Sequence record: NC_047899.1
Direction: 5' to 3' (one strand)
Length of the DNA: 44,895 bases
DNA from: Escherichia phage VEc3
Made by a program: the position numbers and the translations under genes. The stretch's first letter is position 1; every line of letters starts with the position of its first letter. Below the pieces are notes generated by a model. That model saw nothing but the letters and a program-made list of their open reading frames with translations, had not been told where the DNA came from and did no database searches. Positions 1,727 to 18,681 of the stretch are shown here, in pieces.

Positions 1727-2080
1727 ATGGCTATGTCTAATATGACTTACTCTCAGGTTTACAACACTGCTCATGCTGCACTGGTTGAACGCGTATGGGA
1801 TGATGCCATTGATTGTATTGATAACGCACATGATGCAATCCATGAGGTAGCGGACAGTGCTGTACCAATCTATTATGCTGACATCTTCTCAGTGATGGCC
1901 AGTGAAGGCATCGACCACTTCTTCGAGGATTCTGGCTTAATGCCAGACACTAAGGATGTGACGGTCGTACTACAAGCCCGTATTTATGAACAACTCACCA
2001 TTGATTTATGGGAACGTGTTCAAGATATGATTGATGCGTACATCGATTCCGCTGAGGATTCAGAAGAAGAAGAGGAATAA
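1727..2080 (+). CDS. ocr: Ocr-like DNA mimic (T7 gp0.3 homolog), anti-restriction
   Basis: 117 aa from ATG 1727 (GAGGA RBS); begins MAMSNMTY and contains [15 protein letters not shown] and [13 protein letters not shown]...[15 protein letters not shown] blocks recalled from T7 Ocr; acidic tail DSEEEEE; track ORF start at 1712 is probably too early. Confidence 0.85.
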
Positions 2081-6814: not shown

Positions 6815-6946
6815 ATGCGTACTAACTTCGAAAAGATGACCCGTAAAGCTAACCGTTTTGACATGGAAGAAGGGCAGAAGAAAGGCAAGAAGCTGAATGT
6901 ACCTGTCCGTGACCGTGCATCTAAACGCGCTGCGTGGGAGTTCTAA
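6815..6946 (+). CDS. gp1.1-like small basic protein (43 aa)
   Basis: MRTNFEKMTRKANRFDMEEGQKKGKKLNVPVRDRASKRAAWEF resembles recalled T7 gp1.1 (MRNFEKMTKRSNRNARDFEATKGRKLNKTKRDRSHKRSWEGQ); AAGGA RBS. Confidence 0.5.
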   Translation: MRTNFEKMTRKANRFDMEEGQKKGKKLNVPVRDRASKRAAWEF

Positions 6947-18177: not shown

Positions 18178-18681
18178 ATGTCACACTATGAATGTAAGAA
18201 GTATCATAAGCGTTATGATTACTGTACTTGTGGTCAAGAGAAAACATCTTTTAAAGTTGGAGACAAGGTATTTCGTAATGAAAAAGATTCTATTCCTTGG
18301 AATCAATTCTGCAAAGAAGCTGGTATTGACCCTGATAGTCCTGTAACCATAGATGATATTGATGGCATTAACTTGTGCTTTCGTGAGGTGAGGGGTGCAG
18401 GTTGGGATTCCAAAAAATTCAAACTTGCATCTGATAAGTTAGACAACAATATGGTAACTCAGCCTAAGCACTACGAGTTCTTTGATGGTGTAGAGGCAAT
18501 CACTATCATTGCCCGCAGTATGACTGAAAAGCAATTCGCTGGGTACTGCATGGGTAATGCCCTTAAGTATCGCCTGCGTGCAGGTAAGAAGTTCAATACT
18601 GAAGAAGACTTGAAGAAGGCAGACTATTATAAAGAGTTATTCCAGAAGCATCGTCACGAATGTATTGATGAGGATATTTAA
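18178..18681 (+). CDS. Zinc-ribbon protein with DUF3310-like C-terminal domain
   Basis: 167 aa; N-terminal CKKYHKRYDYCTCG; C-terminal PKHY...GNALKYRLRAGKK pattern recalled as DUF3310. Confidence 0.45.
   Translation: MSHYECKKYHKRYDYCTCGQEKTSFKVGDKVFRNEKDSIPWNQFCKEAGIDPDSPVTIDDIDGINLCFREVRGAGWDSKKFKLASDKLDNNMVTQPKHYEFFDGVEAITIIARSMTEKQFAGYCMGNALKYRLRAGKKFNTEEDLKKADYYKELFQKHRHECIDEDI

Follow-up and report, generated by a model that had tools for sequence, protein, structure and literature searches.

The gene at positions 1727 to 2080 (+ strand) of Escherichia phage VEc3 very probably encodes a functional Ocr orthologue, a DNA-mimic anti-restriction protein, in the K1E/AAPEc6-type allele usual among Vectrevirus phages; its expected activity is read across from homologues. 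The window (the whole stretch of DNA analysed, 44,895 nt; NC_047899.1) is a complete Vectrevirus genome (K1-5/K1E-like, Molineuxvirinae), and the records closest to it are about 96 to 98% identical over about 90% coverage. VEc3 ocr is not new as a feature: GenBank contains an identical protein, the family has been characterised, a homologue from an SP6-type phage has been tested, and Ocr in SP6 and in Vectrevirus phages already appears in published papers. A modest point beyond known Ocr biology, and past the textbook account, is an allele dimorphism with clean junctions: close Vectrevirus genomes hold two very different Ocr alleles, swapped exactly at the gene boundaries. No description of this dimorphism was found in the searchable literature, a scope outside which Scholl et al. 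2004 and Stummeyer et al. 2006 fall.

Identity, fold and charge of VEc3 Ocr

The ORF holding ocr spans positions 1712 through 2080 (+ strand), and its ATG at 1727 opens a protein of 117 aa plus stop. This ATG stands 8 nt past GAGGA, the Shine-Dalgarno motif read from the sequence at 1713 through 1718 (+ strand), and residues 1 through 8 of the product (MAMSNMTY) are also residues 1 through 8 of T7 gp0.3. Given this common start and the Shine-Dalgarno spacing, the coordinates 1727 to 2080, which an earlier note on this DNA had assigned to the gene, are correct. A start at 1712 (122 aa) was rejected, as GAGGA would then fall within the extension and the characterised homologues all start with MAMSNMTY.

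The same note had described the 117-aa protein as closely similar to T7 gp0.3 (Ocr), and this description holds. A phmmer search of PDB sequences aligns it with T7 Ocr (PDB: 1S7Z) from residue 1 through 117 on 1 through 117, gap-free, at E = 1.6e-41; identity to gp0.3 over the full length is 64% (67% by BLAST). In Pfam the protein matches PF08684 (“DNA mimic ocr”) with 141.7 bits (cut-off 25), and in PHROGs it matches 2568 (“ocr-like anti-restriction”) at E = 8e-49. The check for merely compositional similarity was run and the resemblance exceeds composition: VEc3 and T7 Ocr are identical at 75 of 117 positions, whereas 10,000 shuffles average 8.8 and reach at most 22. At positions where neither protein has an acidic residue, identity is still 54/79. 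Similarity from acidic composition alone is ruled out by these two results.

An AlphaFold2 model of the protein, made with 54 homologues in the alignment, has a pLDDT of 88.4 and a pTM of 0.80. Helices are predicted at residues 8 through 25, 35 through 45, 50 through 57 and 78 through 116, so that the modelled protein shows the elongated helical monomer with a long C-terminal helix that defines the Ocr fold. A Foldseek comparison of the model with the PDB gave TM scores of 0.78 to 0.89 and rmsd values of 1.7 to 2.3 Å to Ocr chains (PDB: 1s7z, 9ex7, 8zek, 8v45, 8q56, 7eew, and 6r9b); in the same search no non-Ocr structure matched at E < 1e-3.

The protein contains 28 D/E against 4 K/R residues, with a net charge of about -24 per monomer (T7 Ocr, -28). 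Acidic positions of T7 Ocr are kept at 24 of 34 sites; 10 are lost, including D13, E17, D27, D30, D33 and E65, and 4 are gained. Identity to T7 Ocr also varies by segment, from 89% in residues 49 through 95 to 42% in helices 1-2 (residues 9 through 48) and 36% in the C-terminal helix (residues 96 through 117). Given the lost acidic positions and the divergence of both these regions, the target range or affinity of the VEc3 protein could differ. The hydrophobic dimer-interface residues of T7 Ocr, including the F54 and L82 region, are kept in the sequence alignment, and F54, L82 and E67 are all conserved. In T7 Ocr, F54 and L82 are dimer-interface residues that touch PARIS AriA and are mutated in PARIS escape (PMC10802264), and E67 makes a salt bridge to R1145 of BrxX (PMC11842806).

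The early region around ocr

The ocr gene lies 1.7 kb from the left end of the genome, past the 300-bp terminal repeat and before the first phage promoter (2195). The terminal repeat is direct and 100% identical between its copies (1 through 300 and 44592 through 44891), from which it follows that the VEc3 sequence is a complete linear genome; from about 190 to 720 the left end is packed with short CTTAGTG-type repeats.

VEc3 encodes an SP6-type single-subunit RNA polymerase (RNAP; 3447 through 6074, + strand; Pfam RNA_pol and RPOL_N) that is 99% identical to that of K1-5, 86% to that of SP6 and about 32 to 36% to that of T7. Promoters with a core like GACACTATAGAAG occur at 12 sites on the + strand. 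The earlier description of polymerase and promoters as SP6/K1-5-type is thus confirmed. The first of these promoters (2190 through 2212, + strand; GACACTATAAGAGA at 2195 through 2208) is downstream of ocr, and none of the 12 + strand sites lies upstream of the gene.

Two sigma-70-type candidates of the form TTGACA-17-TACATT, each matching the consensus at 10/12 positions, lie upstream of ocr on the + strand: a putative early promoter at 716 through 744, and the candidate nearest the gene at 1348 through 1376, which is within a stretch 98 to 100% conserved with K1-5 and AAPEc6. The sigma-70 scan as a whole showed no enrichment (9 sites against 11.7 expected from shuffles); we propose only the two best sites, chosen for quality, placement, conservation and a boxA downstream. 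With the first phage promoter downstream of ocr and sigma-70-like sites upstream, the gene would belong to the host-RNAP early class, in an early unit transcribed by the host enzyme as in T7, the timing being judged from position. An intrinsic-terminator-like hairpin after the RNAP gene (6082 through 6105, + strand; a 10-bp stem with 6 GC pairs, then a T-run) is the likely end of the early transcription unit. The intergenic region between the RNAP gene and the gp1.1-like gene also contains two copies of a 16-bp perfect palindrome, GTCTCACATGTGAGAC (6148 through 6163 and 6330 through 6345), which flank the phage promoter at 6174 on both sides.

The rrn-type boxA GCTCTTTAACAA is present in three exact copies on the + strand (795 through 806, 1410 through 1421, and 1618 through 1629), with 0.33 expected; all match the boxA consensus GYTCTTTAANA (PMC5725501). 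The third copy is about 100 nt upstream of ocr, and the other two stand about 50 nt past the best sigma-70-like promoters. T7 has the 12-mer once (813 through 824, between A3 and gene 0.3), SP6 has two copies, and K1-5, AAPEc6 and T147P9 have three each. The boxA copies suggest Nus-factor antitermination of early host-RNAP transcripts. The ocr leader also contains a stable RNA hairpin (1641 through 1722, + strand): the RNA fold of 1576 through 1730 has z = -3.4, and no shuffle was as stable. This hairpin region is 98 to 100% conserved in K1-5 and AAPEc6, despite the differing ocr allele downstream in K1-5, and may be an RNase III-type processing site, its position matching that of T7 R0.3. An Rfam scan of the whole VEc3 genome returned no known RNA element near ocr at gathering thresholds. 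The early ORFs at 824 through 964, 961 through 1137, 1130 through 1339, 2083 through 2196 and 2451 through 3383 match only families of unknown function in Pfam and PHROGs, and no second anti-defence gene was found among them.

Alleles and exchange at the ocr slot

Ocr was detected by tblastn in 570 phage records, and the VEc3 allele forms a clade of its own. The VEc3 protein is 100% identical to AAPEc6 ANT40804.1 and 99% identical to that of K1E. At 90% identity or more, its allele is found in 44 database records, including K1E, AAPEc6, ACG-C91, LL11 and Sem1-4; all 44 are Vectrevirus-type genomes of 43.7 to 45.9 kb, and many annotate the gene as “protein Ocr” (also “ocr-like anti-restriction”). 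The nearest Ocr proteins outside Vectrevirus are about 70% identical, and the database holds no Ocr between 70% and 86% identity to that of VEc3.

Inside its allele clade ocr is under strong purifying selection: dN/dS is 0 to 0.08 among members diverged to a dS of about 0.8. Between VEc3 and AAPEc6 there are 8 synonymous and 0 non-synonymous differences; between VEc3 and Sem1 there are 33 and 10, respectively (dN/dS 0.05). That VEc3 ocr is a decaying relic, or has a main role other than anti-restriction, such as the inhibition of host RNA polymerase reported for T7 Ocr, is barely credible. T7 Ocr does bind E. coli RNAP, in a complex that is among the fold matches of the VEc3 model (PDB: 6r9b), but such binding would be an added activity and not an alternative one, and the ORF is intact, with a good Shine-Dalgarno sequence, a confident structural model and low dN/dS sustained up to that divergence. 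The dN/dS range likewise rules out a pseudogene.

Genomes of the same allele type also differ in how ocr tracks the backbone. In Sem1-4, the nearest backbone relatives of VEc3 (~96% identity across the first 8 kb), ocr is a sub-variant at a dS of about 0.77 from that of VEc3, whereas AAPEc6 and K1E, which have more distant backbones, carry a near-identical gene (dS 0.13 to 0.16). This contrast indicates that ocr has been shuffled even among genomes of one allele type.

In K1-5 and T147P9, the slot that holds VEc3 ocr is occupied by a 110-aa Ocr only 44 to 47% identical to the VEc3 protein. The nearest relatives of this allele are found in T7-like Kayfunavirus phages and in K1F (82 to 84% identity); for K1-5 Ocr the figure is 82% with gp0.3 of the Kayfunavirus EcoDS1 and about 83% with the K1F protein. 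At 90% identity or more, the K1-5-type allele occurs in 24 records, compared with 44 for the VEc3 type, and two records that are both named Vectrevirus T147P1 differ in their allele. The nucleotide sequences of VEc3 and K1-5 are 98 to 100% identical from 1337 to the Shine-Dalgarno sequence and 22 to 70% identical inside ocr; in the alignment with T147P9, too, the flanks of the slot are 98 to 100% identical and ocr itself falls to the same range. The Shine-Dalgarno sequence forms the left junction of the cassette, where identity to K1-5 and T147P9 is kept through AATGAGGATTAA and gone at the start codon. At the right junction (2062 through 2085, + strand), which comprises the poly-Glu tail codons, the stop and the start of gene 4, nucleotide alignment with K1-5, T147P9 and AAPEc6 shows identity regained at GAAGAAGA.GAA.AATAAG.ATGGAAAAGC.

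The divergence of ocr is discordant with that of its surroundings: between VEc3 and K1-5, dN is 0.42 for ocr and 0.01 for RNAP. In a neighbour-joining tree without bootstrap, and with genome size standing in for subfamily, the Ocr proteins of ~44-kb genomes intermix with those of ~39-kb genomes in at least 4 places. The discordant divergence and the clean allele swap against K1-5 show that the ocr slot is a recombination cassette, exchanged among Autographiviridae lineages and between Vectrevirus genomes. The gene-5 slot at 2273 through 2398 (+ strand), just past the first phage promoter, is a second variable cassette; one 41-aa ORF is common to VEc3 and T147P9, K1-5 and AAPEc6 each differ, and the flanks are conserved. 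The 41-aa ORF has no match in Pfam or PHROGs.

The existence of two alleles 44% identical in one slot of one genus (44 and 24 records) invites a functional reading, in which the K1E/AAPEc6 and K1-5/EcoDS1 types are kept for the differing defences that they block or the differing sensors, such as PARIS, that they trigger, and in which the changes that helices 1-2 and the C-terminal helix have undergone would be adaptive. We regard this reading as rather unlikely. The precise cassette boundaries and the T147P1-named records with differing alleles fit it, as does the concentration of the divergence from T7 in residues 9 through 48 and 96 through 117 with a net loss of 6 acidic residues; PARIS, moreover, reacts to negatively charged proteins, and its reactions vary by system. 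Yet F54, L82, E67 and the entire 49 to 95 core are conserved, and the strong purifying selection within the allele fits a conserved function equally well. Ocr, as Stephanou et al. 2009 and Kanwar et al. 2016 are said to have found, is also very tolerant of charge loss, which counts against the adaptive reading. It is in the same tentative sense, as a suggestion we would not favour, that the two Vectrevirus alleles may stay swappable owing to differences in the type I restriction-modification (R-M) or BREX variants they block or in PARIS-type triggering. On this reading, the Shine-Dalgarno and poly-Glu-tail/stop sequences, both conserved, would serve as recombination handles between co-infecting T7-like and SP6-like phages, and balancing selection would maintain the slot as a counter-defence “hotspot”. 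The reading we prefer remains that of a functional Ocr orthologue in its normal Vectrevirus allele.

The earlier note had held further that the genome looks mosaic, with T7-like Ocr on an SP6-type background and the peptide at 6815 through 6946 as a second T7-like module. That peptide (43 aa, + strand; Pfam PF08200, PHROG 2490) does belong to the gp1.1 family: it matches PF08200 (Phage_1_1) with 53.7 bits (cut-off 21; E = 2.8e-14) and is syntenic with T7 gene 1.1 and with gene 8 of SP6 and K1-5. It is, however, standard in SP6 and K1-5, and its BLAST identity is 71% with SP6 gene 8 and 51% with T7 gp1.1. Both genes hold T7-equivalent positions, since ocr belongs to the early region at the left end and gp1.1 follows the RNAP gene, and genes 3 and 8 of SP6 and of K1-5 are Ocr and gp1.1 homologues syntenic with those of VEc3. 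As both are normal and syntenic in the SP6-like prototypes, they give no sign of a T7/SP6 hybrid genome (SP6, K1-5 and K1E all carry Ocr); what survives of the claim is local mosaicism at the ocr slot.

In VEc3 the gp1.1-like gene, which follows the RNAP gene, is parted from it by an inserted HNH gene. This HNH endonuclease ORF (6396 through 6812, + strand; 138 aa; Pfam HNH_3, PHROG 959), probably a homing endonuclease, is carried by about 430 bp of inserted DNA that K1-5 and SP6 lack and that falls exactly between the RNAP-terminator region and the gp1.1-like gene. The insertion changes the N terminus of gp1.1 from MRNFEK to MRTNFEK. Another ORF, at 18178 through 18681 (+ strand; 167 aa), matches the C-terminal part of the T7 nucleotide kinase gp1.7 with 64% identity over 73 aa; its product, too, resembles T7 much more closely than do the core proteins (25 to 36%).

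An import of T7-type ocr and gp1.1 modules into an SP6-type backbone is an improbable account of these genes. The protein identities lend it some weight: VEc3 Ocr is 64 to 67% identical to T7 gp0.3, while the core proteins of the two phages (RNAP, primase/helicase, DNA polymerase, portal, tail and terminase) are at 25 to 36%. VEc3 Ocr is also slightly closer to that of T7 (64%) than to that of SP6 (60%), where the core proteins are mostly 63 to 95% identical (a few, including gp35/gp36, 29 to 42%), and the gp1.1-like peptide (51%) and the gp1.7-like C-terminal segment (64%) are unusually T7-like. But ocr and gp1.1 are in T7-equivalent positions, SP6, K1-5, K1E and all 44 close relatives have both genes, and the VEc3 allele is a separate clade with an empty interval of identity around it (70 to 86%). 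At the DNA level, too, VEc3 and T7 ocr are only 64% identical, with synonymous sites saturated (pS 0.87), and the comparison of VEc3 with T7 found no DNA similarity beyond the ocr ORF. Saturated synonymous divergence and the lack of flank homology rule out a recent transfer of ocr from T7; as the synonymous sites against T7 are saturated and DNA similarity is confined to the ORF, the exchange is old. Ocr is discordant between T7 and SP6 as well, being 77% identical (dN 0.14, dS 1.1) while RNAP has a dN of 0.81 with dS saturated. Judged by the saturated synonymous sites between VEc3 and T7 ocr, the discordance of ocr with its backbone goes back to an old exchange within Autographiviridae rather than to a recent acquisition from T7.

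Proposed function and known Ocr systems

In the mechanism that we propose, host RNA polymerase would transcribe ocr from left-end sigma-70 promoters, ahead of the phage SP6-type polymerase. The product would take the Ocr helical fold and dimerise via the conserved hydrophobic interface, and its net charge of about -24 per monomer would create a carboxylate surface imitating bent B-form DNA. Ocr could then sit in the grooves with which type I R-M enzymes, as well as the BREX methyltransferase PglX/BrxX, bind DNA; with these grooves occupied, the unmodified incoming phage genome would be protected. The kept PARIS AriA-sensing interface residues probably leave the phage exposed to PARIS-type sensors. 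For the VEc3 allele, these activities are expected on the strength of the T7 and SP6 homologues, which are 60 to 64% identical.

What the earlier note had said of type I R-M, BREX, PARIS and host range agrees with the literature. SP6 Gp5 was put forward as an anti-restriction protein in 2004, according to a citation in PMC4837284, and has been shown experimentally to inhibit Salmonella BREX fully (PMC11341690). Neither T7 Ocr nor its SP6 homologue activated the Salmonella PARIS homologue (PMC11341690), and PARIS triggering is therefore system-dependent.

For annotation, VEc3 is a therapeutic-type coliphage, K1E/K1-5-like, whose Ocr gene is ordinary. Useful for host-range prediction, though expected, is that a phage with this gene should resist type I R-M and BREX and may be sensitive to PARIS-like sensors. 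Each Vectrevirus Ocr allele has relatives in T7-like phages of the same hosts, and the pair offers a natural test of how sequence variation in a DNA mimic tunes defence evasion against triggering.

Among known systems, the closest counterparts are the Ocr proteins of other Vectrevirus phages (K1E, AAPEc6, ACG-C91, LL11 and Sem1-4), which share the allele, the locus and the flanks with VEc3 and differ from it by synonymous or a few conservative changes only. K1-5 gene 3, like VEc3 ocr, encodes a member of the Pfam ocr family, but has its own N terminus (MERNANAYY) and a shorter, differing C-terminal region. T7 gp0.3 shares with VEc3 Ocr its 117-aa length, fold, acidic C-terminal tail, early left-end position and leader boxA; in VEc3, however, ocr is not the first gene but comes fifth among the ORFs counted from the left end, at about 1.7 kb, and the backbone polymerase is of SP6 type. 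SP6 has an Ocr homologue at the same locus as VEc3 (SP6 1637 through 1996; NP_853565), which is gene 3 in the numbering of Scholl and Gp5 in that of Dobbins. Its product is 60% identical to VEc3 Ocr and 77% to T7 Ocr; as it is nearer to T7 than to VEc3, the SP6 and Vectrevirus copies are not simple orthologues. ArdA and other DNA-mimic anti-restriction proteins follow the same strategy as Ocr, an acidic mimic directed against type I R-M, but are unrelated to the VEc3 protein in sequence and fold.
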